NCBI RefSeq assembly: GCF_963921235.1 | Contig: NC_086097.1 | Location: forward strand, 138,882,001 to 138,946,000 | Source of the DNA: Mobula hypostoma | Taxonomy: Eukaryota | Reading direction: 5' to 3' | DNA: 64,000 bases | In this document: positions 307 through 36,546 of the stretch, piece after piece | Layout: each line of letters opens with the position of its first letter | Numbering within the stretch: position 1 is the stretch's first letter | Notes under the pieces: generated by a model | The model's database searches: none | What the model saw: only the letters and a program-made list of their open reading frames with translations | What the model was told of the DNA's origin: nothing | Position numbers and translations under genes: made by a program

Positions 307-3300
307 AGGTGGAGATGGGAATAAAGGGAGGGAGGTGGGGATTGGAGTAAAGGGAGGGAGGTGGGGAATGGAATAAAGGGAGGGAGGTGGGGAGTGGAGT
401 AAAGGGAGGGAGGTGAGGATTGGAATAAAGGGAGGGAGGTGGGGAATGGAATAAAGGGAGGGAGGTGTGGAATGGAATAAAGGGAGGGAGGTGTGGATTG
501 GAATAAAGGGAGGGAGGTGGGGATGGGAATAAAGGGAGGGAGGTGTGGAATGGAATAAAGGGAGGGAGGTGTGGAATGGAATAAAGGGAGGGAGGTGTGG
601 AATGGAATAAAGGGAGGGAGGTGTGGAATGGGAATAAAGGGAGGGAGGTGTGGATTGGAATAAAGGGAGGGAGGTGGGGAATGGAATAAAGGGAGGGAGG
701 TGGGGAATGGAATAAAGGGAGGGAGGTGGGGAATGGAATAAAGGGAGGGAGGTGGGGAATGGAATAAAGGGAGGGAGGTGGGGAATGGAATAAAGGGAGG
801 GAGGTGGGGAATGGAATAAAGGGAGGGAGGTGGGGAATGGAATAAAGGGAGGTAGGTGGGGAATGGAATAAAGGGAGGGAGGTGGGGAATGGAATAAAGG
901 GAGGGAGGTGGGTGGGAATAAAGGGAGGGAGGTGTGGAATGGAATAAAGGGAGGGAGGTGGGGAATGGAATAAAGGGAGGGAGGTGGGGAATGGAATAAA
1001 GGGAGGGAGGTGGGGAATGGAATAAAGGGAGGGAGGTGGGGAATGGAATAAAGGGAGGGAGGTGTGGAATGGAATAAAGGGAGGGAGGTGTGGAATGGAA
1101 TAAAGGGAGGGAGGTGTGGAATGGAATAAAGGGAGGGAGGTGTGGAATGGAATAAAGGGAGGGAGGTGTGGAATGGAATAAAGGGAGGGAGGTGTGGAAT
1201 GGAATAAAGGGAGGGAGGTGTGGAATGGAATAAAGGGAGGGAGGTGTGGAATGGAATAAAGGGAGGGAGGTGTGGAATGGAATAAAGGGAGGGAGGTGGG
1301 GAATGGAATAAAGGGAGGGAGGTGGGGAATGGAATAAAGGGAGGGAGGTGGGGAATGGAATAAAGGGAGGGAGGTGGGGAATGGAATAAAGGGAGGGAGG
1401 TGGGGAATGGAATAAAGGGAGGGAGGTGGGGAATGGAATAAAGGGAGGGAGGTGGAGATGGGAATAAAGGGAGGGAGGTGTGGAATGGGAATAAAGGGAG
1501 GGAGGTGGGGATTGGAATAAAGGGAGGGAGGTGGGGAATGGAATAAAGGGAGGGAGGTGGGGAATGGAATAAAGGGAGGGAGGTGGGGAATGGAATAAAG
1601 GGAGGGAGGTGGGGAATGGAATAAAGGGAGGGAGGTGGGGAATGGAATAAAGGGAGGGAGGTGTGGAATGGAATAAAGGGAGGGAGGTGTGGAATGGAAT
1701 AAAGGGAGGGAGGTGGGGAATGGAATAAAGGGAGGGAGGTGGGGAATGGAATAAAGGGAGGGAGGTGGGGAATGGAATAAAGGGAGGGAGGTGTGGAATG
1801 GAATAAAGGGAGGGAGGTGTGGAATGGAATAAAGGGAGGGAGGTGTGGAATGGAATAAAGGGAGGGAGGTGTGGAATGGAATAAAGGGAGGGAGGTGGGG
1901 AATGGAATAAAGGGAGGGAGGTGGGGAATGGAATAAAGGGAGGGAGGTGTGGAATGGAATAAAGGGAGGGAGGTGGGGAATGGAATAAAGGGAGGGAGGT
2001 GGGGAATGGAATAAAGGGAGGGAGGTGTGGAATGGAATAAAGGGAGGGAGGTGTGGAATGGAATAAAGGGAGGGAGGTGTGGAATGGAATAAAGGGAGGG
2101 AGGTGGGGAATGGAATAAAGGGAGGGAGGTGGGGAATGGAATAAAGGGAGGGAGGTGGAGATGGGAATAAAGGGAGGGAGGTGTGGAATGGAATAAAGGG
2201 AGGGAGGTGGGGAATGGAATAAAGGGAGGGAGGTGTGGAATGGAATAAAGGGAGGGAGGTGGGGAATGGAATAAAGGGAGGGAGGTGGGGAATGGAATAA
2301 AGGGAGGGAGGTGGAGAATGGAATAAAGGGAGGGAGGTGGGGAATGGAATAAAGGGAGGGAGGTGGAGAATGGAATAAAGGGAGGGAGGTGGGGAATGGA
2401 ATAAAGGGAGGGAGGTGGGGAATGGAATAAAGGGAGGGAGGTGGGGAATGGAATAAAGGGAGGGAGGTGGGGAATGGAATAAAGGGAGGGAGGTAAAGGG
2501 AGGGATGGGGAATGGAATAAAGGGAGGGAGGGAATGGAATAAAGGGAGGGAGGTGGAGAATGGAATAAAGGGAGGGAGGTGGTGAATGGAATAAAGGGAG
2601 GGAGGTGGGGAATGGAATAAAGGGAGGGAGGTGTGGAATGGAATAAAGGGAGGGAGGTGTGGAATGGAATAAAGGGAGGGAGGTGGGGAATGGAATAAAG
2701 GGAGGGAGGTGTGGAATGGAATAAAGGGAGGGAGGTGGGGAATGGAATAAAGGGAGGGAGGTGTGGAATGGAATAAAGGGAGGGAGGTGGGGAATGGAAT
2801 AAAGGGAGGGAGGTGTGGAATGGAATAAAGGGAGGGAGGTGGGGAATGGAATAAAGGGAGGGAGGTGGGGAATGGAATAAAGGGAGGGAGGTGGGGAATG
2901 GAATAAAGGGAGGGAGGTGGGGAATGGAATAAAGGGAGGGAGGTGGGGAATGGAATAAAGGGAGGGAGGTGTGGAATGGAATAAAGGGAGGGAGGTGGGG
3001 AATGGAATAAAGGGAGGGAGGTGGGGAATGGAATAAAGGGAGGGAGGTGTGGAATGGAATAAAGGGAGGGAGGTGGGGAATGGAATAAAGGGAGGGAGGT
3101 GGAGAATGGAATAAAGGGAGGGAGGTGTGGAATGGAATAAAGGGAGGGAGGTGGGGATGGGAATAAAGGGAGGGAGGTGTGGAATGGAATAAAGGGAGGG
3201 AGGTGTGGAATGGAATAAAGGGAGGGAGGTGGGGATGGGAATAAAGGGAGGGAGGTGTGGAATGGAATAAAGGGAGGGAGGTGTGGAATGGAATAAAGGG

Positions 3301-6300
3301 AGGGAGGTGGGGATGGGAATAAAGGGAGGGAGGTGTGGAATGGAATAAAGGGAGGGAGGTGGGGAATGGAATAAAGGGAGGGAGGTGGAGAATGGAATAA
3401 AGGGAGGGAGGTGGGGAATGGAATAAAGGGAGGGAGGTGGGGAATGGAATAAAGGGAGGGAGGTGTGGAATGGAATAAAGGGAGGGAGGTGTGGAATGGA
3501 ATAAAGGGAGGGAGGTGGGGAATGGGAATAAAGGGAGGGAGGTGGGGAATGGAATAAAGGGAGGGAGGTGGTGATGGGAATAAAGGGAGGGAGGTGGAGA
3601 ATGGAATAAAGGGAGGGAGGTGGGGAATGGAATAAAGGGAGGGAGGTGTGGAATGGAATAAAGGGAGGGAGGTGTGGAATGGAATAAAGGGAGGGAGGTG
3701 TGGAATGGAATAAAGGGAGGGAGGTGTGGAATGGAATAAAGGGAGGGAGGTGGAGAATGGAATAAAGGGAGGGAGGTGGGGAATGGAATAAAGGGAGGGA
3801 GGTGGGGAATGGGAATAAAGGGAGGGAGGTGGGGAATGGAATAAAGGGAGGGAGGTGGAGATGGAATGGATGGGAAGGAGGGAGGGAGGTGGGGAATGGA
3901 ATAAAGGGAGGGAGGTGGGGAATGGAATAAAGGGAGGGAGGTGGGGAATGGAATAAAGGGAGGGAGGTGGGGAATGGAATAAAGGGAGGGAGGTGGGGAA
4001 TGGAATAAAGGGAGGGAGGTGGGGAATGGAATAAAGGGAGGGATGGAATAAAGGGAGGGAATGGAATAAAGGGAGGGAGGTGGGGAATGGAGATGGGAAT
4101 AAAGGGAGGGAGGTGGGGAATGGAATAAAGGGAGGGAGGTGTGGAATGGAATAAAGGGAGGGAGGTGGGGAATGGAATAAAGGGAGGGAGGTGTGGAATG
4201 GAATAAAGGGAGGGAGGTGGGGAATGGAATAAAGGGAGGGAGGTGGGGAATGGAATAAAGGGAGGGAGGTGGGGAATGGAATAAAGGGAGGGAGGTGGGG
4301 AATGGAATAAAGGGAGGGAGGTGGGGAATGGAATAAAGGGAGGGAGGTGTGGAATGGAATAAAGGGAGGGAGGTGTGGAATGGAATAAAGGGAGGGAGGT
4401 GGGGAATGGAATAAAGGGAGGGAGGTGGGGAATGGAATAAAGGGAGGGAGGTGGGGAATGGAATAAAGGGAGGGAGGTGTGTGGATGGGAATAAAGGGAG
4501 GGAGGTGGGGAATGGAATAAAGGGAGGGAGGTGGGGAATGGAATAAAGGGAGGGAGGTGTGGAATGGAATAAAGGGAGGGAGGTGTGGAATGGAATAAAG
4601 GGAGGGAGGTGGAGATGGGAATAAAGGGAGGGAGGTGTGGAATGGAATAAAGGGAGGGAGGTGGGGAATGGAATAAAGGGAGGGAGGTGTGGAATGGAAT
4701 AAAGGGAGGGAGGTGGGGAATGGAATAAAGGGAGGGAGGTGTGGAATGGAATAAAGGGAGGGAGGTGTGGAATGGAATAAAGGGAGGGAGGTGTGGAATG
4801 GAATAAAGGGAGGGAGGTGTGGAATGGAATAAAGGGAGGGAGGTGGGGAATGGAATAAAGGGAGGGAGGTGTGGAATGGAATAAAGGGAGGGAGGTGGAG
4901 AATGGAATAAAGGGAGGGAGGTGGGGAATGGAATAAAGGGAGGGAGGTGTGGAATGGAATAAAGGGAGGGAGGTGGGGAATGGAATAAAGGGAGGGAGGT
5001 GTGGAATGGAATAAAGGGAGGGAGGTGGGGAATGGAATAAAGGGAGGGAGGTGTGGAATGGAATAAAGGGAGGGAGGTGTGGAATGGAATAAAGGGAGGG
5101 AGGTGGGGAATGGAATAAAGGGAGGGAGGTGGGGGGGATGGGAATAAAGGGAGGGAGGTGGGGAATGGAATAAAGGGAGGGAGGTGGGGAATGGAATAAA
5201 GGGAGGGAGGTGGAGAATGGAATAAAGGGAGGGAGGTGGGGAATGGAATAAAGGGAGGGAGGTGGGGAATGGAATAAAGGGAGGGAGGTGGGGAATGGAA
5301 TAAAGGGAGGGAGGTGGGGAATGGAATAAAGGGAGGGAGGTGGGGAATGGAATAAAGGGAGGGAGGTGTGGAATGGAATAAAGGGAGGGAGGTGGGGAAT
5401 GGAATAAAGGGAGGGAGGTGTGGAATGGAATAAAGGGAGGGAGGTGTGGAATGGAATAAAGGGAGGGAGGTGGGGAATGGAATAAAGGGAGGGAGGTGTG
5501 GAATGGAATAAAGGGAGGGAGGTGGGGAATGGAATAAAGGGAGGGAGGTGTGGAATGGAATAAAGGGAGGGAGGTGTGGAATGGAATAAAGGGAGGGAGG
5601 TGTGGAATGGAATAAAGGGAGGGAGGTGTGGAATGGAATAAAGGGAGGGAGGTGGGGAATGGAATAAAGGGAGGGAGGTGGGGAATGGAATAAAGGGAGG
5701 GAGGTGGGGAATGGAATAAAGGGAGGGAGGTGTGGAATGGAATAAAGGGAGGGAGGTGGGGAATGGAATAAAGGGAGGGAGGTGGAGAATGGAATAAAGG
5801 GAGGGAGGTGGAGATGGGAATAAAGGGAGGGAGGTGTGGAATGGAATAAAGGGAGGGAGGTGTGGAATGGAATAAAGGGAGGGAGGTGGAGAATGGAATA
5901 AAGGGAGGGAGGTGTGGAATGGAATAAAGGGAGGGAGGTGTGGAATGGAATAAAGGGAGGGAGGTGGAGAATGGAATAAAGGGAGGGAGGTGGAGATGGG
6001 AATAAAGGGAGGGAGGTGTGGAATGGAATAAAGGGAGGGAGGTGTGGAATGGAATAAAGGGAGGGAGGTGTGGAATGGAATAAAGGGAGGGAGGTGGAGA
6101 ATGGAATAAAGGGAGGGAGGTGGGGAATGGGAATAAAGGGAGGGAGGTGGGGAATGGAATAAAGGGAGGGAGGTGGGGAATGGAATAAAGGGAGGGAGGT
6201 GGGGAATGGAATAAAGGGAGGGAGGTGGGGAATGGAATAAAGGGAGGGAGGTGTGGAATGGAATAAAGGGAGGGAGGTGTGGAATGGAATAAAGGGAGGG

Positions 6301-9300
6301 AGGTGTGGAATGGAATAAAGGGAGGGAGGTGGAGAATGGAATAAAGGGAGGGAGGTGTGGAATGGAATAAAGGGAGGGAGGTGTGGAATGGAATAAAGGG
6401 AGGGAGGTGTGGAATGGAATAAAGGGAGGGAGGTGGAGAATGGAATAAAGGGAGGGAGGTGGAGATGGGAATAAAGGGAGGGAGGTGTGGAATGGAATAA
6501 AGGGAGGGAGGTGTGGAATGGAATAAAGGGAGGGAGGTGTGGAATGGAATAAAGGGAGGGAGGTGGAGAATGGAATAAAGGGAGGGAGGTGGAGAATGGG
6601 AATAAAGGGAGGGAGGTGTGGAATGGAATAAAGGGAGGGAGGTGGGGAATGGAATAAAGGGAGGGAGGTGTGGAATGGAATAAAGGGAGGGAGGTGTGGA
6701 ATGGAATAAAGGGAGGGAGGTGGTGGAATGGAATAAAGGGAGGGAGGTGGGGAATGGAATAAAGGGAGGGAGGTGTGGAATGGAATAAAGGGAGGGAGGT
6801 GGGGAATGGAATAAAGGGAGGGAGGTGTGGAATGGAATAAAGGGAGGGAGGTGTGGAATGGAATAAAGGGAGGGAGGTGTGGAATGGAATAAAGGGAGGG
6901 AGGTGTGGAATGGAATAAAGGGAGGGAGGTGTGGAATGGAATAAAGGGAGGGAGGTGTGGAATGGAATAAAGGGAGGGAGGTGGAGAATGGAATAAAGGG
7001 AGGGAGGTGGGGAATGGAATAAAGGGAGGGAGGTGTGGAATGGAATAAAGGGAGGGAGGTGGGGAATGGAATAAAGGGAGGGAGGTGGGGAATGGAATAA
7101 AGGGAGGGAGGTGTGGAATGGAATAAAGGGAGGGAGGTGTGGAATGGAATAAAGGGAGGGAGGTGGGGAATGGAATAAAGGGAGGGAGGTGTGGAATGGA
7201 ATAAAGGGAGGGAGGTGGGGAATGGAATAAAGGGAGGGAGGTGGGGAATGGAATAAAGGGAGGGAGGTGTGGAATGGAATAAAGGGAGGGAGGTGTGGAA
7301 TGGAATAAAGGGAGGGAGGTGGGGAATGGAATAAAGGGAGGGAGGTGTGGAGATGGGATGGAATAAAGGGAGGGAGGTGGGAATGGAATAAAGGGAGGGA
7401 GGTGGAATAAAGGGAATGGAATAAAGGGAGGGAGGTGGGAATGGAATGGAATAAAGGGAGGGAGGAATGGAATAAAGGGAGGGAGGTGGGATGGAATAAA
7501 GGGAGGGAGGTGGGGAATGGAATAAAGGGAGGGAGGGATGGAATAAAGGGAGGGAGGTGTGGAATGGAATAAAGGGAGGGAGGTGGGGAATGGAATAAAG
7601 GGAGGGAGGTGTGGAATGGAATAAAGGGAGGGAGGTGGGGAATGGAATAAAGGGAGGGAGGTGTGGAATGGAATAAAGGGAGGGAGGTGTGGAATGGAAT
7701 AAAGGGAGGGAGGTGTGGAATGGAATAAAGGGAGGGAGGTGGGGAATGGAATAAAGGGAGGGAGGTGTGGAATGGAATAAAGGGAGGGAGGTGGGGAATG
7801 GAATAAAGGGAGGGAGGTGTGGAATGGAATAAAGGGAGGGAGGTGGAGAATGGAATAAAGGGAGGGAGGTGTGGAATGGAATAAAGGGAGGGAGGTGTGG
7901 AATGGAATAAAGGGAGGGAGGTGTGGAATGGAATAAAGGGAGGGAGGTGTGGAATGGAATAAAGGGAGGGAGGTGGNNNNNNNNNNNNNNNNNNNNNNNN
8001 NNNNNNNNNNNNNNNNNNNNNNNNNNNNNNNNNNNNNNNNNNNNNNNNNNNNNNNNNNNNNNNNNNNNNNNNNNNNNNNNNNNNNNNNNNNNNNNNNNNN
8101 NNNNNNNNNNNNNNNNNNNNNNNNNNNNNNNNNNNNNNNNNNNNNNNNNNNNNNNNNNNNNNNNNNNNNNNNNNNNGAGGGAGGTGGGGAATGGAATAAA
8201 GGGAGGGAGGTGTGGAATGGAATAAAGGGAGGGAGGTGTGGAATGGAATAAAGGGAGGGAGGTGTGGAGATGGGAATAAAGGGAGGGAGGTGGGGAATGG
8301 AATAAAGGGAGGGAGGTGGGGAATGGAATAAAGGGAGGGAGGTGGGGATGGGAATAAAGGGAGGGAGGTGGGGAATGGAATAAAGGGAGGGAGGTGGGGA
8401 TGGGAATAAAGGGAGGGAGGTGGGGAATGGAATAAAGGGAGGGAGGTGGGGATGGGAATAAAGGGAGGGAGGTGTGGAATGGAATAAAGGGAGGGAGGTG
8501 TGGAATGGAATAAAGGGAGGGAGGTGGGGAATGGAATAAAGGGAGGGAGGTGTGGAATGGAATAAAGGGAGGGAGGTGTGGAATGGAATAAAGGGAGGGA
8601 GGTGTGGAGATGCGAATAAAGGGAGGGAGGTGTGGAATGGAATAAAGGGAGGGAGGTGTGGAATGGAATAAAGGGAGGGAGGTGTGGAGATGGTAATAAA
8701 GGGAGGGAGGTGTGGAATGGAATAAAGGGAGGGAGGTGGGGAATGGAATAAAGGGAGGGAGGTGTGGAATGGAATAAAGGGAGGGAGGTGGGGAATGGAA
8801 TAAAGGGAGGGAGGTGGGGAATGGAATAAAGGGAGGGAGGTGTGGAATGGAATAAAGGGAGGGAGGTGGGGAATGGAATAAAGGGAGGGAGGTGTGGAAT
8901 GGAATAAAGGGAGGGAGGTGTGGAATGGAATAAAGGGAGGGAGGTGTGGAATGGAATAAAGGGAGGGAGGTGGGGAATGGAATAAAGGGAGGGAGGTGTG
9001 GAATGGAATAAAGGGAGGGAGGTGTGGAATGGAATAAAGGGAGGGAGGTGTGGAATGGAATAAAGGGAGGGAGGTGGGGAATGGAATAAAGGGAGGGAGG
9101 TGTGGAATGGAATAAAGGGAGGGAGGTGTGGAATGGAATAAAGGGAGGGAGGTGGGGAATGGAATAAAGGGAGGGAGGTGGGGAATGGAATAAAGGGAGG
9201 GAGGTGTGGAATGGAATAAAGGGAGGGAGGTGTGGAATGGAATAAAGGGAGGGAGGTGGGGAATGGAATAAAGGGAGGGAGGTGTGGAATGGAATAAAGG

Positions 9301-10840
9301 GAGGGAGGTGGGGAATGGAATAAAGGGAGGGAGGTGTGGAATGGAATAAAGGGAGGGAGGTGTGGAATGGAATAAAGGGAGGGAGGTGTGGATGGAATAA
9401 AGGGAGGGAGGTGGGGAATGGAATAAAGGGAGGGAGAATGTGTGGAATGGAATAAAGGGAGGGAGGTGTGGAATGGAATAAAGGGAGGGAGGTGTGGATT
9501 GGAATAAAGGGAGGGAGGTGGAGAATGGAATAAAGGGAGGGAGGTGTGGAATGGAATAAAGGGAGGGAGGTGTGGAATGGAATAAAGGGAGGGAGGTGGG
9601 AATGGAATAAAGGGAGGGAGGTGGGGAATGGAATAAAGGGAGGGAGGTGGGGAATGGAATAAAGGGAGGGAGGTGGGGAATGGAATAAAGGGAGGGAATG
9701 GGAATAAAGGGAGGGAGGTGTGGAATGGAATAAAGGGAGGGAGGTGTGGATTGGAATAAAGGGAGGGAGGTGGAGATTGGAATAAAGGGAGGGAGGTGTG
9801 GAATGGAATAAAGGGAGGGAGGTGTGGAATGGGAATAAAGGGAGGGAGGTGTGGAATGGAATAAAGGGAGGGAGGTGTGGAATGGAATAAAGGGAGGGAG
9901 GTGGAGAATGGGAATAAAGGGAGGGAGGTGTGGAATGGAATAAAGGGAGGGAGGTGGGGAATGGAATAAAGGGAGGGAGGTGGGGAATGGAATAAAGGGA
10001 GGGAGGTGTGGAATGGAATAAAGGGAGGGAGGTGTGGAATGGAATAAAGGGAGGGAGGTGTGGAATGGAATAAAGGGAGGGAGGTGTGGGATGGGAATAA
10101 AGGGAGGGAGGTGGAGATGGGAATAAAGGGAGGGAGGTGGGGAATGGAATAAAGGGAGGGAGGTGTGGAATGGAATAAAGGGAGGGAGGTGTGGATTGGA
10201 ATAAAGGGAGGGAGGTGTGGAATGGAATAAAGGGAGGGAGGTGGGGAATGGAATAAAGGGAGGGAGGTGGAGATGGGAATAAAGGGAGGGAGGTGGGGAA
10301 TGGAATAAAGGGAGGGAGGTGTGGAATGGAATAAAGGGAGGGAGGTGGGGAATGGAATAAAGGGAGGGAGGTGGGGATTGGAATAAAGGGAGGGACGTGT
10401 GGAATGGAATAAAGGGAGGGAGGTGTGGAATGGAATAAAGGGAGGGAGGTGGGGAATGGAATAAAGGGAGGGAGGTGGGGAATGGAATAAAGGGAGGGAG
10501 GTGTGGAATGGAATAAAGGGAGGGAGGTGTGGAATGGAATAAAGGGAGGGAGGTGGCGATTAGAATAAAAGGAGGGAGGTGGGGAATGGAATAAAGGGAG
10601 GGAGGTGTGGAATGGAATAAAAGGAGGGAGGTGTGGAATGGAATAAAGGGAGGGAGGTGGGGAATGGAATAAAGGGAGGGAGGTGGGGAATGGAATAAAG
10701 GGAGGGACGTGTGGAATGGAATAAAGGGAGGGAGGTGTGGATTGGAATAAAGGGAGGGACGTGTGGAATGGAATAAAGGGAGGGAGGTGTGGAATGGAAT
10801 AAAGGGAGGGAGGTGGGGATTAGAATAAAGAAAGGGAGGT
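307..10840. repeat. 26-bp minisatellite, consensus GGAATAAAGGGAGGGAGGTG(G/T)GGAAT, roughly 400 sequenced units
   Basis: Directly visible tandem array; variants TGGGG/TGTGG/TGGAG; interrupted by an N gap. Confidence 0.99.
7977..8176. other. Assembly gap (200 N)
   Basis: Run of N within the minisatellite. Confidence 0.99.
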
Positions 10841-10949
10841 GAAGATTGGAACCAGTGTGAAGGGTGTGTGGGTGATGGGGAAATGGAGAGGATGAGGGAG
10901 GGGAAAGAGATAGGATGAAGACGTCCAAGTGCCTCAGGAGATTCCCACT

Positions 10950-19770: not shown

Positions 19771-21755
19771 CATAAAACCATAGGACATAGGTGCAGAATT
19801 AGGCTATTCGGCCACCAAGTCTGCTCCGCAATTCGATCATGGCTGATTTATTTTCCTTCTCAACCCAATTCTGCCTTCTCCCCATAAACTTTGACCACCC
19901 CTTACTAATCAAGAACCTATCAAACTCTGCTTTAAACATACGCGAATCTGTGGAATTCATTGCTACAGATGTTTGTGGCAATGAATTCCACAGGTTCACC
20001 ATCCACCGTTCTACCTTTGTTCTTGGATTGGTTCTTATAAATTTCCACTGATCTTCTTAAATGCCAGTACATTATTCCTTAAATGCAGAGCCCAAAACTG
20101 TGCACAATACTCTAAATATAGTCTGATCAATGCCTTATAAAGCCTCAGGATTATATCATTATATTTAGATTCTAGCCCCCTCAAAATAATTGTTAACAGT
20201 GCATTTGCCTTCCTTCCTACAGACTCAACCTGCAAGTTAATCTTTAAGGATTCCCGCAATAGGATTCCCAAGTCCCTTTCCACCTCCAATTTCTGTATTT
20301 GCTCTGCATTTAGAAAATCTGCTATGGTTTTATTCCTTCTACTAAAGTGCATGATCATACCCTTTCCTAAAGCATCTGCAACCTATTTGCTTATTCTCCT
20401 AATCTGTCCAAATCCTTTTGCAGACTTACTGCTCAACCTATCTTTGAACAACTCTAACATCCAAATCATTACAAATAATGTGGAAAGTTAAAAGTGAAAC
20501 TAAAATCGAACCCAATACAGACCCCTGTGGAGCACCATTAATCACCGACAGCCAACCAGAAAATGTCTTCTTTATCCCCAGTCTTTGTCTTTGGCCAGTC
20601 TATCCATGCTAGTATCTTTCCTTTAATACTATGGAGCGCATATCTAGTTTAGTATCATTGACAAAAGCCTTTTGACAATCTAAGTAAACAACATCCATTG
20701 ATTCTCTTTTGTCTATCCTGCCTATTGTTTCCTCAAGGAATTCCAACAGATTTGTCAGGCAAGATTTTCCCTTAAGGAAACTATGGTGACTTTGTCATGG
20801 TCCGGTCCATGAAGTCTGCATTCTGGTTCATGGTCCAGTCGGTTGACTCCAGACTCCGGGTCTTCTGGCTATCCCTTGTTTCAGTTGGGCTTCATCATAG
20901 GCACCTGATACTTGTCTTGGGGATGGGAATATAAGTGGACCTGGGTTCGAGTGTGGTTGCTGGTTCATTCTGTCATATGAGGGGCGCTGAGAGTGGACCC
21001 AAGTGCAAGACACAGACACTGAAGTACTAGGAACAGGACTTGACTAGAGAGCTGGGACAAGAACACAGACCTGGGCTAGGACATTGGCTAGGCAAGCGGG
21101 ACCAGGACAAGGAACTGGGAACTAGGAGCCTGGGCTGGGACTTCGAGCCGGAGACTGGACTAGGACCCAGAACCTGGGTCTTGACTAGGGCTCGGACCCC
21201 GGAACTAGGCGAGGACATGACGTAGCTACAGGACAGGACATGGCTTGGGTTCTTTCATGGCGTAGCCACGTCATGTCCGCACCTAGTTCCGGGGTCCAAG
21301 CCCTAGTCAAGACCCAGGTTCTGGGTCCTAGTCCACTCTCCGGCTCAGAGTCCAAGCCCGGGCTCCTAGTTCCCAGTTCCTTGTCCTGGTCCCGCTTGCC
21401 TAGCCAATGTCCTAGCTCAAGTCTGTGTTCTTGTCCCAGCTCTCTAGTCAAGTCCTGTTCCTAGTATTTCAGTGTCTGTGTCTTGCATTTGGGTCCACTC
21501 CCAGCACCCCTAATATGACAGAACGAACCAGCACCCACACTTGAACCCAGGGCCACTTATATTCCCATCCCCAAGACGAGCATCAGGTGCCTATGATGAA
21601 GCCCAACTGAAACAAGGGACAGCCAGAAGACCCGGAGTCTGAAGTCCACGGACCGGACCGTGAACCGGAACGCGGACTTCACAGACCGGACCATGACAGA
21701 TTTGGCCTATTTTATCATGTGCCTCCAAGTACCTCGAAGCCTCATCCTTAATAAT
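19771..21755 (-). mobile_element. CR1 LINE (RT 3' part) hosting the palindromic insertion at 20793-21698
   Basis: LRLYKALIRLYLEYCAQFWA and MVNLWNSLPQ motifs; CR1 sequence is continuous across the insertion. Confidence 0.9.
20793..21698. mobile_element. 906-bp palindromic element (438-bp arms, 30-bp loop), TGTCATGG...CCATGACA, 5-bp TSD; probably Gypsy-LTR derived
   Basis: Arms 20793-21230 and 21261-21698 are equal-length reverse complements; flanks GACTT/GATTT; internal TGTCAT/ATGACA ends. Confidence 0.9.
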
Positions 21756-21756
21756 A

Positions 21757-24700
21757 AAACTATAAGACCTTAAAATACAAGAGCAGAATTAGGCCATTTG
21801 ACCCATCAAATCTGTTCTGCCAATTCATCATGGCTGATCCATTTTCCCTCTCAGACCCAGTCTCCTGCCTTTTCCCCATATCCCTTCATGTGCTGACTAA
21901 TCAAGAATCTGTCAACCTCTGCCTTAAAAATACCCAAAGTCTTGGCCTCCACAGCCACACGTGGCAACAAATTCCACAGATTCCCCACTGTCTGGTGAAA
22001 GAAATTCCTACTCACCTCCATTTTAAAGGACGCCCTTCTATTCTGAACTTATATCCTCTGGCCTTAAACTCCCCCACCATAGTAAACATCTTCTCCAGAT
22101 CTGCTCCTTCAAGGCCTATCAATATTTGATAGCTTTCAATTAGGTCACCCCTAATTCTTCTGAATTCCGGTGAATACAAGCCCAGAGCCATCAAATGCTC
22201 TTCATATGACAAGCCTTTCAATCCCAGAATCATTTCTGTGAACACCCTTTGAAACTTCCCCAATGTTAGCACATCCTTTTTTGGATAAGGAGCCAAAACT
22301 GCTCAAAGTACTCCAAGTGGGGCCCTACAGTGCCTCAAAACGACATCATTACTTTTATATTCTAGTCCTCTTGAAATGAATGCTAACATTGCATTTGCCT
22401 TTCTCACCACTAACTCAACCTGCAAATTAATCTTTGGGAATCTTGCACAAGGACATCCAAGTCACTTTTCTCCTCAGATGTTGCATTTTCTCTCCATTTA
22501 TACAATAGTCAACCCTTTCATTTCTTCCACCAAAGTGCATGACCATACACTTCCTGACACTATATTCCATCTGCCACTTCATTGCCCATTTTCCTAATCT
22601 AACCAAGACCTTCTATAGCTGCTTTACTTCCTCAAACCTCCCTGCCCCTCTACCTATACTTGTATCATCTGCAAATATTGCCACAATGCCATCAATTCCA
22701 TCATCCATGACATATAACACCAAAAGAATAGGTCCCAACACAGACCCCTGTACAATACCACTAGTCAATGGCAGCCAACCAGAAAAGGCTCCCTTTATTC
22801 CCACTCTTTGCCTCCTGCCAATCAGCTACTGTTTTATCCACACTAGTATCTTTCCTGTAATACCACTGGCTCATAAATTGTTAAGTAGCACCATGTCTGG
22901 AACCTTGTAAAAGGTGTTGAGAATCCAAGTACACAACATCCAACCAATTCCCCTTTGTCTATCCTGCTTGTTACTTCTTCAAAGAATTCCAATAGATTTG
23001 TCCTGCAAGATTTACCTTTGAGGAAAAGATGCTGTGTATGTCCTATATTATCACGTGTCTTCAAGTTCCCCAAAACCACATCCTTCCCAATTTACTCCAA
23101 CATCTTCCCAACCACTGAGGTCAGACTAACTGGCCTATAGTTTCTTTTCTTTTGCCTCTCTCCCTTAGAACCATAGAACAAAAGAACAATACAGCACAGA
23201 CCCTTCTTGAAGGGTCAAGTGACATGTGCAATTTTTCAATCTTCTGGAACCATTCCAGAGTCTAGTGATTCTTGAAAGACCATTGCTAATGCATAAACAA
23301 TCTCTTTCAGAACCCTGGGGTGTACATCATCTGGCTGAGGTGATTTATCTACCTTCAAACCTTTCAGTTTCCCAAGAACCTTCTGACTAGTAATGGCAAA
23401 TTCACACACTTCTGCATCCTGACACTCCCAAACTTCCACCTTACTGCTAGAGCCTTCTGCAGTGAAGCCTGATGCATGATACAAATTCAGTTCATCTGCC
23501 ATTTCTTTGTCCCTCTTTACAACCTCTCCAGCAGTCCAATGTCCACTCTCGACTCTCTTTTACGCCTTATGTATCTGAAGAAATTTTTAGTATTAATTTT
23601 AAAATTATTGGCTAGTTTACCTTTGTATTCCATCTTTTCCTTCTTAATCGCTTTTTAATTGTTTTCTGTTGGTTTTTAAAAGCTTCCCAATCCTCTAACT
23701 TCCCACTAATTTTTGCTCTATTATATTCTCTGTCTTTGACTTTTTGTTGGCTTTGACTTCTCTTATTTGCCATGGTGTTTCATCTTGCCTTTAGAATACT
23801 TCTTCCTCTTTGGGAGTAGTACTATATCTATCCTGCTCCTTCCAATTTGCTTCCAGAAATTCCAGCCATTGCTGCTCTGCTGTCATCCCTGCCAGTGTTC
23901 TTTTCCAATCGATCTTGGCCAGCTGCTCTCTCATTCCCTTTACTCCACTGTAATACTGATACATCTGACTTTAGCTTCTCCTTCTCACATTGCAGGACAC
24001 ATTCTATCATAGTATGGTTACTGTTCCCCTTGTGTTTCTTTACCTTAAGCTCTCTAATCAATTCCAGTCCAATGCATAACATCCAATCCAGAATAGCCAA
24101 TCCCCTGGTGCACTCAGCCACAAGCTGCCCTAAAAAGCCATCTCATAGGCATTCTAGAAATTGCCCTTCTTGGGATTCAGCACTAACCTGATTTTCCCAA
24201 TATACCTGCATATTGAAATCCCCCCATGATGATTGTAACATCACCCTTTTGGCGTGCATTTTCTATCTCCTGTTATAATTTGTAGACCACATCCCAACTA
24301 ATGTTTGGGGATCCATATATAATTCACATCAGGGTTTTTTTAGCCTTGCAGTTTCTTAGCTCTACGCTCAAAGATTCAATATCTTCTGATCCTATGTCAC
24401 CTTGTTCTAATGATTTGATTTTATTTTTTACCAACAGAGCCACCATTCCCCCCACCCCCGCCTACCTACCTGTCCTTTTGATACAATGTGAATCCTCGGA
24501 TGTTAAGCTCCCAGCTATAATCTTCTTTCCACCACAATTCAGTGATGCCCACAATGTCAAACATGCCAATCTGTAACTGTGCTACAAGTCCATCTACCTT
24601 ATTCCGTATACTGCGCACATTTAAAACACCTTCAGTCCTGTATTTACCCTTTTCCATTTTCTCCATCTTTTACATTGAAACTCACCCTGTTGACTGCAAT

Positions 24701-34175: not shown

Positions 34176-36362
34176 TATAAGAACAAGGATGTAATGTTGA
34201 GACTTTATAAAGCACTGGTGAGGCCTCACTTGGAGTATTCTAAGCAGTTTTGGGCCCCTTATCTGAGAAAGGATGTACTGAAACTGGAGATAGTTCAAAG
34301 GAAGTTCACAAAAATGATTCCAGGATTGAACGGCTTGTCATATGAAGAGCGTTTGATGGCTCTGGGCCTGTATTCACTAGAATTCAAAAGAAAGAGGGGT
34401 GACCACATTGAAAACTATTGAATGGTGAAATGCATTGATAGAGTGGATGTGGAGAGGATGTTTCCTTTGGTGGGAGTTGGGAGTGTCTAAGACTAGAGGA
34501 CAGAGCCTCAGAATAGAGATGGGGGGGGAGTGTCATTTTAGAGTGGCGATGAGAAGGAATTTCTTTAGCTGGAGAGTGGTGAATCTGTGGAACATGTTGC
34601 CACAGGCAGCTGTGGAGGCCCAGCCTTTATGTATCATTTAAGGCTGAGGTTGGTAGATTCTTGATTGGTCAGGGAATGAAGAAATTTGGCGAAGGGGGCA
34701 AGTGGGAGACAGGAGGTGGAGGCTGAGAGAAAAAATGGATCCGCCATGATGAAATGGCGGAACAGACTCGATGGGCAAAATGACCTAATTATGCACCTAT
34801 GTCTTATGGTCTTCTGGTCTCACTGAATGTCAACAAGACCAAGGAGCTGATTATCGACTTCAGTTGGAGGAAACTGGAAGTCTGTGAGCCAGTCCTTATC
34901 GGGGGATCGGAAATGGAGAGATCAGCAACTTTAAATTCCTCTGTGATATCATTTCAGAGGATCTGTATTGCGCCCAGTAAGTGCTATTATGAAGAAAGCA
35001 CAGTAAAGCCTCTAGTTTTTGAGGGGTTTGCAAAGATTCAGCATGACATCTAAAACTTTAAGGGAAACTTCTATGAATGTGTGATGAAGAGTATATTGAC
35101 TGGTCCACCACAGGTAAAGCCCACTCCACTATTGAAGTGCTGTCACAGGAAAGCAATGTCCGTTATCAAGGACACCCCATCACCCAGTTCATACTCTCTT
35201 CTCGCTGCTGTCATCAGGAAGAAGGTACAGGAGCTTCAGAACCTACACCACCATGTTCAGGAACAGTTATTAGCTCTCAACCATCAGGCTCTTGAACTAA
35301 AGGGGATAACTTAGTTCAACTTCACTCGCCCCACTGTTCCGACAGTCTATGGACTTCCTTTCAAGAACTCTTCACCCTATTATTGCCTGCTTGCTTGCTT
35401 ATTTATTTATTTATTTACATTATACTTTTCTTCTTTTGTATTTGCATAGTTTGCAGCCTTTTGCATTTTGGTTGTTTGTCTGTCCTGCTGGACATAGTCT
35501 TTCATTGATTCTTTTGTCGTTTCTTGGACTTACTGTGTATGCCCACAAGAAAATGAATCTCAGGGTTGTATATGGTGACATATATGTACTTTGAACTTTG
35601 GTGGGCAACAACAGTCATGGGCCTGGTCCTCTTTTTTGGGTAAGAGGTTACCATGAGGAGAGTCGAAGTGATTCAAGGATGTGCTCAAATGAATTTAGCA
35701 TCCTCACTGACTCCTGGCACTCTCTGGCCCATGACCATTCAAAATGGAGACGAAACATTCAGGACAGCATTGAGAACCTTGATTCCGTGCATCAGAAGCA
35801 CACAGAGGGCCCGCACCTGGTGGGAAGAGCAAACCAGCCATTCCCCCACCCTTTCAAGCACCCCATGCCCCATCTGTGCATGAACCTGTGGTTCCCTTAT
35901 TGGCCTCACTGGTCACCTTGGAATCCACAGATCCATATGGGAAGCCAGTCATCCTCAGTCACAAAGGACTGCCGAAGTAAAGGAAGAACTATATTGTCAT
36001 CAAAAGTGTTATCAGTGCTAAGACTTCATCGTGGAACGGGATATGAAATTATGAAGGTCATAGTTTGGGTGAATGCACATAGATGCTTTAGCTATAGCAG
36101 CGAATCAAGAACTGCAGGGCATAGGATTAACAGGGGAAGGGACCTGATGAATAAGATTTTCACAGAGAATGGCAATAATATACCAAACAAGCTGCCAGTG
36201 AATGTAGTTCAGGCAAGCAGATACAATAACAACATCCGTCTCTAAAGGACTTGTGGTCAAGCAAGCAGAGAGGAAAGATATGAGTCAGACTCAAGTAAAA
36301 GGGACGAGCTTTGATGGGCTCCTTGGTCAGCATGGACTGTATGACTGCAGGACCCACTGCTA

Positions 36363-36546
36363 TGCTGTAATGGTATGGCTGAAAGTGGTGTTATGCTTGT
36401 AATTGTATGGGTGAAAGTGTGTTAGTGCTTATAATGGTATGAGTGAAAGTGTGTTAATGCTTGTAATTGTATGGGTGAAAGTGGGGTTAGTGCTTGTAAT
36501 GGTATGGGTGAAAGTGTGTTAGTGCTTGCAATGGTATGGGTGAAAA
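36363..36546. repeat. ~32-bp minisatellite (GTGTTAGTGCTTGTAATGGTATGGGTGAAAGT), 5-6 copies
   Basis: Directly visible. Confidence 0.9.

Follow-up and report, generated by a model that had tools for sequence, protein, structure and literature searches.

Results

A palindromic LTR-derived insertion in a LINE-type repeat

The window, that is, the whole 64-kb stretch of DNA that was analyzed, contains at 20793–21698 a palindrome of 906 bases embedded in a LINE-type repeat, labelled CR1 in the preliminary description (Table 1). An ungapped comparison with its own reverse complement gives two arms of 437 bp each (20793–21229 and 21262–21698), with 33 mismatches, around a 32-bp loop; the palindrome reported in the preliminary description is thus present, although its arms and loop had been put at 438 and 30 bp, respectively. 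Its termini are TGTCATGG and CCATGACA, and the motifs listed in Table 1 lie where that description had placed them. CpG-type transitions account for 10 of the 17 mismatches in the outer 178 bp of the arms (segment A), being the majority there as had been noticed, and for 5 of the 16 in the inner 259 bp (segment B). The element has no long ORF (63 and 74 aa), and its central 574 nt fold with an energy of −319 kcal/mol (z of −43), none of 100 shuffles being equally good.

Table 1. Features of the palindromic element and its insertion site (window coordinates)
Feature	Position	Strand	Remark
Host LINE-type repeat	20493–20792, continued 21699–21998	.	Both flanks align to other copies (window and fetched loci)
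Left TSD copy, GACTT	20788–20792	.	Overlap of the flanks in other host-repeat copies, ~5 bases
U3 of LTR, 5′ end TGTCA, integrase attachment end	20793–20958	+	U3/R boundary inferred from TATA spacing
TATA-like box, TATAAG	20930–20935	+	29 nt before the primer site; spacing 28–30 nt in natural copies, depending on the motif used
Self-primer site (PBS complement), GCTGGTTCATTC	20959–20970	+	nt 1–10, predicted RNA 5′ end; nt 11–12 (TC), PBS-side, not R
LTR 3′-terminal 291 nt, minus-sense copy, starting TGTCAT, 32-nt loop included	20971–21261	-	Inferred minus-strand strong-stop DNA
LTR 3′-terminal 259 nt, plus-sense copy, ending ATGACA	21262–21520	+	91–94% identity to LTR 3′ ends
PBS, GAACGAACCAGC	21521–21532	+	Identical 12-mer after the 5′ LTR in two-LTR elements
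Second U3, inverted; second attachment end; TATA at 21556–21561 (-)	21533–21698	-	Private variants in common with the left U3
Right TSD copy, GATTT	21699–21703	.	Flank comparison

The left U3 shows 88–92% identity to the first 173–177 nt of ordinary LTRs (38 other loci among the matches listed), and the loop is the direct continuation of the minus-sense copy, without filler, the two together giving one unbroken match of 93% to the 3′ part of a natural LTR. Moreover, four variants foreign to the family are common to both arms (found in 0/73, 1/73, 0/28, and 0/28 relatives), which indicates that one arm was copied from, or converted by, the other; gene conversion between the arms could account for them as an alternative to copying. 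In a U3 tree with rough support, the two arms are not sisters, and one template cannot be told from two on this tree.

Three other copies of the host repeat, one per locus, each align with both flanks, which are projected to overlap there by 5, 4, and 9 bases, and the letters of the window TSD match at 4 of 5 positions, in agreement with the earlier proposal that the element was inserted as a unit into a continuous LINE. Long palindromes are a known weak point of long-read assembly, and an artefact of that kind was considered. However, the arms differ at their 33 sites with CpG-type decay, and the divergence between the U3 arms (17/178) is near the median of 0.103 observed between the 5′ and 3′ LTR starts of 26 two-LTR elements. 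Besides the TSD and the continuous flanks, short-read contigs cross the left junction at 20880–21016 with no differences and at 20845–21016 with two differences (two runs, one sample); since this sample may be the source of the assembly, these contigs argue only against an assembly artefact, an explanation that is hardly credible here. Among the short-read contigs listed, none bridges the boundary between flank and element, and the matches listed in the expression search include no RNA holder of the element. A contig of run X7, from a second organism, also lies across the junction (window 20858–21020) with seven differences, being either an orthologous copy or a separate junction. Elsewhere, the window has a 26-bp satellite at 307–10841 (~403 copies, 94% matches), a 200-N assembly gap at 7977–8176, and a 32-bp tandem repeat at 36362–36545 (~5.6 copies); no tRNA gene was found in its 64 kb.

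The parent LTR family and its coding sisters

In a genome of 3.48 Gb, segments A and B each match a large family, with 3,244 and 3,900 first-look candidates, respectively, of which 40 were scored in each case. At the fetched loci, A opens and B closes an ordinary LTR unit of 854–1,636 bp, which establishes the colinearity on which the preliminary description depended. A TSD matching at 4–5 of 5 bases flanks 34 of 40 solo units, compared with 24 of 1,560 mismatched flank pairs. Exact patterns retrieve at least 4,444 LTR 5′ ends (21-nt pattern; control, 1) and at least 290 LTR-PBS-ATGGAYCC sites (control, 0), two-LTR elements being a minority of the family. Examples such as L006, L070, L156, and L159 are non-coding and carry unusually long LTRs and a self-primer. 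The internal region between the LTRs measures 123–185 bp in 38 of 40 elements (~165 bp) and ends in a purine tract; tandem LTR-internal arrays are also observed (L072/L073, L159/L160, L167/L168, and L175/L176). This family may already be listed in Repbase or Dfam. An origin of the arms from the TIRs of a DNA transposon such as Ginger is not borne out, the arms coming from direct-repeat LTRs with PBS and PPT, as judged from the U3 and U5 of direct-repeat elements.

A gag-pol parent had been expected, but the parents found are non-coding elements of the type LTR-short internal region-LTR, the coding elements being sisters with a different primer and PBS. Two of these sisters (L264 and L267) match Retrotrans_gag, DUF4939, RVT_1, rve, SH3_Tf2-1, and Chromo in broken frames; an RNase H match is present too, and the best solved relative of their RT is that of Ty3. 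Their PBS/gag start and PPT end resemble the short internal region of the parent at 64–78% over short stretches. Of 150 gag loci listed, 30 were examined, and none of these holds a coding element with the LTR and primer of the parent family itself. The gag, RT, integrase, and chromodomain of the sisters point to self-priming of the Tf1/sushi type, to which, judging from sequence, the parent family would belong. Further gag-bearing families, L245 and also L265 and L266, carry the PBS GAACCCAACAG or GAACGAACTGGC; in L245, a 10-nt complement of the PBS lies upstream, which suggests that other families are self-primed.

Primer, PBS, and leader

In the elements with two LTRs around ~165 bp, the 5′ LTR is followed by GAACGAACCAGC, the complement of which lies 29–30 nt past the TATA box. 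A PBS for the 3′ end of a tRNA would start with TGG. Here the PBS starts with GAAC, and its complement is located ~29–30 nt after a TATA-like box in every subfamily examined, the RNA start of the parent elements being placed from this spacing only. Hence, the tRNA-type PBS that the preliminary description had named as evidence against self-priming was not found in the parent; its PBS lacks the TGG start and is matched by the predicted RNA 5′ end, with which it co-varies.

An R start was located in 29 of 39 elements (window removed); in 26 of these 29, the first 10 nt of primer and PBS match at 8 or more positions, positions 1–5 having been fixed by the R-start finder. The variable positions 6–7 agree in 51 of 58 cells, the shuffle mean being 36.5 and none of 20,000 shuffles reaching as high a value. 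This co-variation comes mainly from two well-filled subfamily states (AT, 13; TT, 10) that are shared by kin, so it would represent few events. In the coding sisters, both sides are changed (GCCAG../..CTGGC, four elements).

Of 11 leaders, 7 show the duplexes primer:PBS and R:U5-end in their minimum-energy fold, the other four being without primer-PBS pairing. A third duplex, the "pretzel", has complementary sequences (GGGTCC in U5 and GGACCC in the leader) and is absent from the minimum-energy folds of the 11 leaders. The start of R and the U5-end/PBS form an inverted repeat matching at 15 of 17 positions. Nucleotides 11–12 of R distinguish the two sides: in the subfamily of the window they read CT in 37 of 38 natural copies and TT in one, whereas TC followed by TGTCAT is found, against these 38 copies, only in the two arms of the window. 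As the junction carries TC and not CT, it would be made up of the primer followed by copied PBS-side sequence, which is what the initiation of the minus strand gives.

Recurrence of the U5-PBS-U3′ junction

Pattern searches and the search with B reveal 13 independent insertions with a U5-PBS-U3′ junction, which fall into four architectures. Class I, the full palindrome with two U3 ends, includes the window and L145. Class II has the order U3-primer-U5′-fold-U5, with one U3 and one U5 end (L137, L139, L140, L146, L109, L042, and L260), and class III is a normal LTR followed by PBS-U3′, again with two U3 ends (L138, L141, and L144). Finally, class IV is a whole element in which R-U5 of the 5′ LTR is inverted between the primer site and the PBS (L143). 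The latter (G000:C58:25921180–25923387) is a two-LTR element with the TSD CCCTC and PBS-side letters at both new junctions.

A TSD matching at 4–5 of 5 bases is present in 11 of the 13 insertions. For those with two U3 ends, the match is 5/5 in L138 and L141, 4/5 in the window, and 2/5 in L145, whose flanks nevertheless overlap by 5 bases in the host repeat. The 13 insertions represent at least seven U3 groups (on a tree with rough support), and their fold points lie 135–887 nt from the U5 end with a microhomology of ~0–7 nt, this mapping covering the loci other than L139 and L146, whose centers are interrupted or complex. The internal region is absent in 12 of the 13 loci, though the PBS is present. 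Three places at G000:C36:142.77–142.92 Mb (L139, L220, and L261) are copies, in both orientations, of one class II insertion with a common flank, which indicates a local segmental duplication.

The first tight pattern gave 26 matches, namely 12 true junctions (11 loci), three mimics, and 11 others. The mimics (L122, L128, and L136) are ordinary LTRs whose R start imitates the junction, and the nine others that were inspected (all except L118 and L133) are unrelated. The second tight pattern gave 21 matches (control, 12), that is, 13 true junctions, one mimic (L214), and seven others, of which four were inspected (one repeated coding-region stretch). A loose pattern produced 123 matches against 109 in the control, with two further places among the 100 listed. 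Both tight patterns retrieved 10 of the 13 loci, so that the count represents a minimum for well-preserved copies. One exact pattern of this junction gave no match in the coding sister family.

The terminal inverted repeats TGT..ACA, the absence of a long ORF, and the TSD would also fit membership in a MITE-like family that arose from LTR ends and was mobilized as a whole, and the two-U3 forms do resemble TIR elements. Nonetheless, no second copy has the fold or the subfamily of the window, and its exact junction pattern matches the two arms of the window only. The other loci have different U3 groups and fold points, the sole repeated locus being the segmental duplication, and in place of the many near-identical copies with the same TIRs that characterize MITE or Ginger families, the 13 loci all differ. 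This origin is already largely refuted and retains only a very small probability. No two loci share a fold, so none has been amplified by transposition; the window element is without evident function and has not multiplied. On sequence grounds, the U5-PBS-U3′ insertions represent a by-product that has arisen repeatedly, rather than a single event or a MITE family. The choice between a one-off fossil and a MITE-like family, as first offered, was therefore too narrow for at least 13 independent by-products in four architectures.

Discussion

Origin of the inverted insertions

The observations to be accounted for are the origin of each piece, the complementarity and co-variation of primer and PBS, the repeated occurrence of the exact junction, the presence of TSDs, and the derivation of both arms from one sequence. 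The palindrome is probably an integrated by-product of self-primed reverse transcription, in which the DNA copy of the primer would have re-primed twice at the primer site. In this process, minus-strand synthesis would start from the first 10–11 nt of the RNA, paired with the PBS. Once 291 nt had been made, the strong-stop DNA would switch to a minus-sense template, either itself or a sister strand, and would retrace U5, cross the GA dinucleotide, and copy the retained RNA primer, its end thus becoming a copy of the PBS. At the RNA 3′ end, this PBS copy would then pair with the U3/R junction and be extended over U3, giving the LTR U3-primer-U5′-fold-U5 seen in the seven class II loci. Because the primer is the start of R, an end that copies the PBS can anneal at the U3/R junction, which would rescue what is a dead end for tRNA-primed retroviruses.

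The plus strand of such a fold-back LTR is self-complementary, so its PBS tail would land on the primer site and copy U3, as in the window and one more locus (class I). The same step on a normal LTR would lead to U3-R-U5-PBS-U3′, as in the three class III loci. A second U3 is present in two of nine fold-back loci compared with three such loci among thousands of normal LTRs, as this plus-strand geometry predicts. Finally, the strand would become double-stranded, either by a new priming event at the polypurine tract or by two hairpins pairing with each other, and an integrase supplied in trans would insert the product through its two U3 ends. The preliminary description had proposed that A is U3 plus self-primer, that the inverted copy of B is minus-strand strong-stop sequence, and that a fold-back product with two U3 ends was integrated, all of which is supported. 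A single fold at the PBS junction, as also proposed there, would be insufficient, a fold in U5 and two re-primings from PBS to primer being needed.

Some of the ends required are known from yeast. According to the available part of PMC11042837, Tf1 cDNA carries a single-stranded PBS tail in about half of the molecules and a PPT tail in about a fifth, and thus supplies the ends that the model needs; the Tf1 RT can extend from 2-nt pairings in vitro with Mn2+ (PMC3035444, as far as its text was available). Also, in L042 the minus-sense copy ends at nucleotides 11–12 of R, where a cut primer would end the template, although this is a single case (n=1). Against the model stand L144, without a TSD and with unrelated flanks, and the absence of an AATAAA/ATTAAA hexamer in 34 of the 35 LTRs examined.

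Two further points against it concern the fold itself: the restart at the window fold has a microhomology of only 0–1 nt, and L260 holds 135 nt in minus sense but 328 nt in plus sense, an asymmetry for which a simple intramolecular fold is insufficient and a second template or a later deletion would be needed. Both would suit the co-integration of two separate aberrant or hairpin-capped cDNAs, with one U3 end each, whose inner ends were joined by host repair, as would the indels by which the two U3 arms differ in L138, L141, and L144. Yet the loop of the window continues the minus-sense copy without filler, the four private variants are common to both arms, and one-U3 loci show the same kind of fold with no need for two molecules, which leaves the joining of two cDNAs a rather improbable explanation.

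A later chromosomal event has to be considered as well. An ordinary LTR or two-LTR element could have been inserted first and then rearranged by template switching during host replication or by recombination at the 12–17 bp inverted repeat of primer and PBS. The 15/17 match of this repeat speaks for such an event, and the ordinary ends and TSD of the seven one-U3 loci are the remnant expected of a prior normal insertion, but the same prior insertion would give a U5 end where, in the two-U3 loci, the TSD abuts a U3 end on both sides. Moreover, a solo LTR has no PBS, yet 12 of the 13 loci, with a PBS, lack the internal region. Rearrangement fails chiefly on these two points, and the duplicated U5 copies, in addition, end exactly at the attachment site. 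The most favorable case for it is L143, a whole element with R-U5 inverted between exactly those sites and its TSD kept, which a chromosomal inversion fits nearly as well as the model; even there, both new junctions have the PBS-side single T and not a reciprocal pair, a matter of one base at one locus. Altogether, we consider a rearrangement after insertion unlikely, though less so than the joining of two cDNAs, and the by-product of self-primed reverse transcription is retained as the probable origin.

Implications of a possible self-primed side pathway

A broader reading, which we favor with some reserve, is that self-primed retrotransposons have a built-in side pathway. Any strand ending in a copy of the PBS would re-prime at the U3/R junction, the primer being the start of R, and fold-back cDNA would be rescued into integration-competent inverted repeats with two U3 ends. 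The 13 loci would then prove self-priming in vertebrate sushi-type elements, with a primer that is retained and cut after nucleotide 10–11, and would prove that integrase pairs two U3 ends in vivo, and the inserts could be a source of silencing RNA.

Self-priming has been shown in yeast Tf1, whereas for vertebrate elements it is described as "implicated" in the parts of the sources available. If the model is true, the 13 insertions would be a fossil record of self-priming in a vertebrate. The captured intermediates would give positional evidence beyond complementarity, namely a primer copied into DNA, a template end at the predicted cut, and re-priming at U3/R. The insertions would likewise show integration through two like ends in the germ line, and the model predicts specific cDNA species in Tf1 particles. 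It would also offer a way for an LTR element to give rise to TIR-like and hairpin DNA, products that repeat annotators would misfile as MITEs. Under the side-pathway reading, the inward-facing promoters and the 270-bp hairpin could yield silencing RNA against thousands of LTR copies. However, the loci are rare (13 found compared with at least 4,444 LTRs) and old, and their effect on the host is therefore probably small.

Comparison with known systems

Inverted two-U3 products or re-priming at the primer site of self-primed elements were not found in the literature searched, as far as the texts were available, most subscription journals and the primary Tf1/sushi papers being outside its scope. 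In the genome, another inverted structure was observed at L268:2798–4159 (G000:C1:6.379–6.380 Mb), with 324-bp arms and TGTCAC..GTGACA ends, that has no match to the parent family.

The Tf1/sushi group (Tf1, Tf2, Tj1, Tosmo, and sushi-ichi), as described in the accessible parts of PMC10085805 and PMC4600332, resembles the parent family in a PBS complementary to the predicted RNA 5′ end, in TGTCA..TGACA ends, in a 5-bp TSD, and in a second duplex beside the primer duplex. Such ends are also given for Tosmo, Tcry1, and Tj1 (PMC10085805, in part). The likeness in chromodomain integrase lies in the coding sisters and not in the parents, which, in contrast to that group, are non-coding, with LTRs of 0.85–1.6 kb and ~165 bp inside (PMC10085805, PMC4600332). 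The window element differs further, an inverted product with two U3 ends being absent from those descriptions in the parts available.

TRIMs, like the parents, consist of two direct repeats that enclose a short non-coding domain with PBS and PPT, and the parents share with TRIMs and tandem-array TRIMs their many solo LTRs and their arrays (PMC6934838, PMC4717578, both in part). A figure legend in the latter even mentions a maize array with two inverted TRIMs inside one TSD (PMC4717578). However, TRIMs have repeats of 100–250 bp, a total length below 1 kb, and a tRNA PBS in the available text (PMC6934838, PMC4717578), whereas the parents measure 2–3 kb, with LTRs of 854–1,636 bp, and use a self-primer, their PBS matching the start of R.

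The complex LTR insertions of Sabot and Schulman 2007 are alike in that an aberrant product of reverse transcription was inserted as a unit and diagnosed by its TSD and similar outer repeats; those are three-LTR fusions in direct orientation, with normal U3 and U5 ends and without inversion or self-primer, according to the part of the article available (PMC1950507). Finally, in the self-priming of HIV-1 minus-strand strong-stop DNA, this DNA also folds back and is extended over U5. There, the accessible text describes the product as a dead end, undetected in particles, the acceptor RNA offering no pairing partner for its new 3′ end (PMC6088434). In the insertions reported here, by contrast, the new 3′ end would be the complement of the start of R, and the product was integrated.
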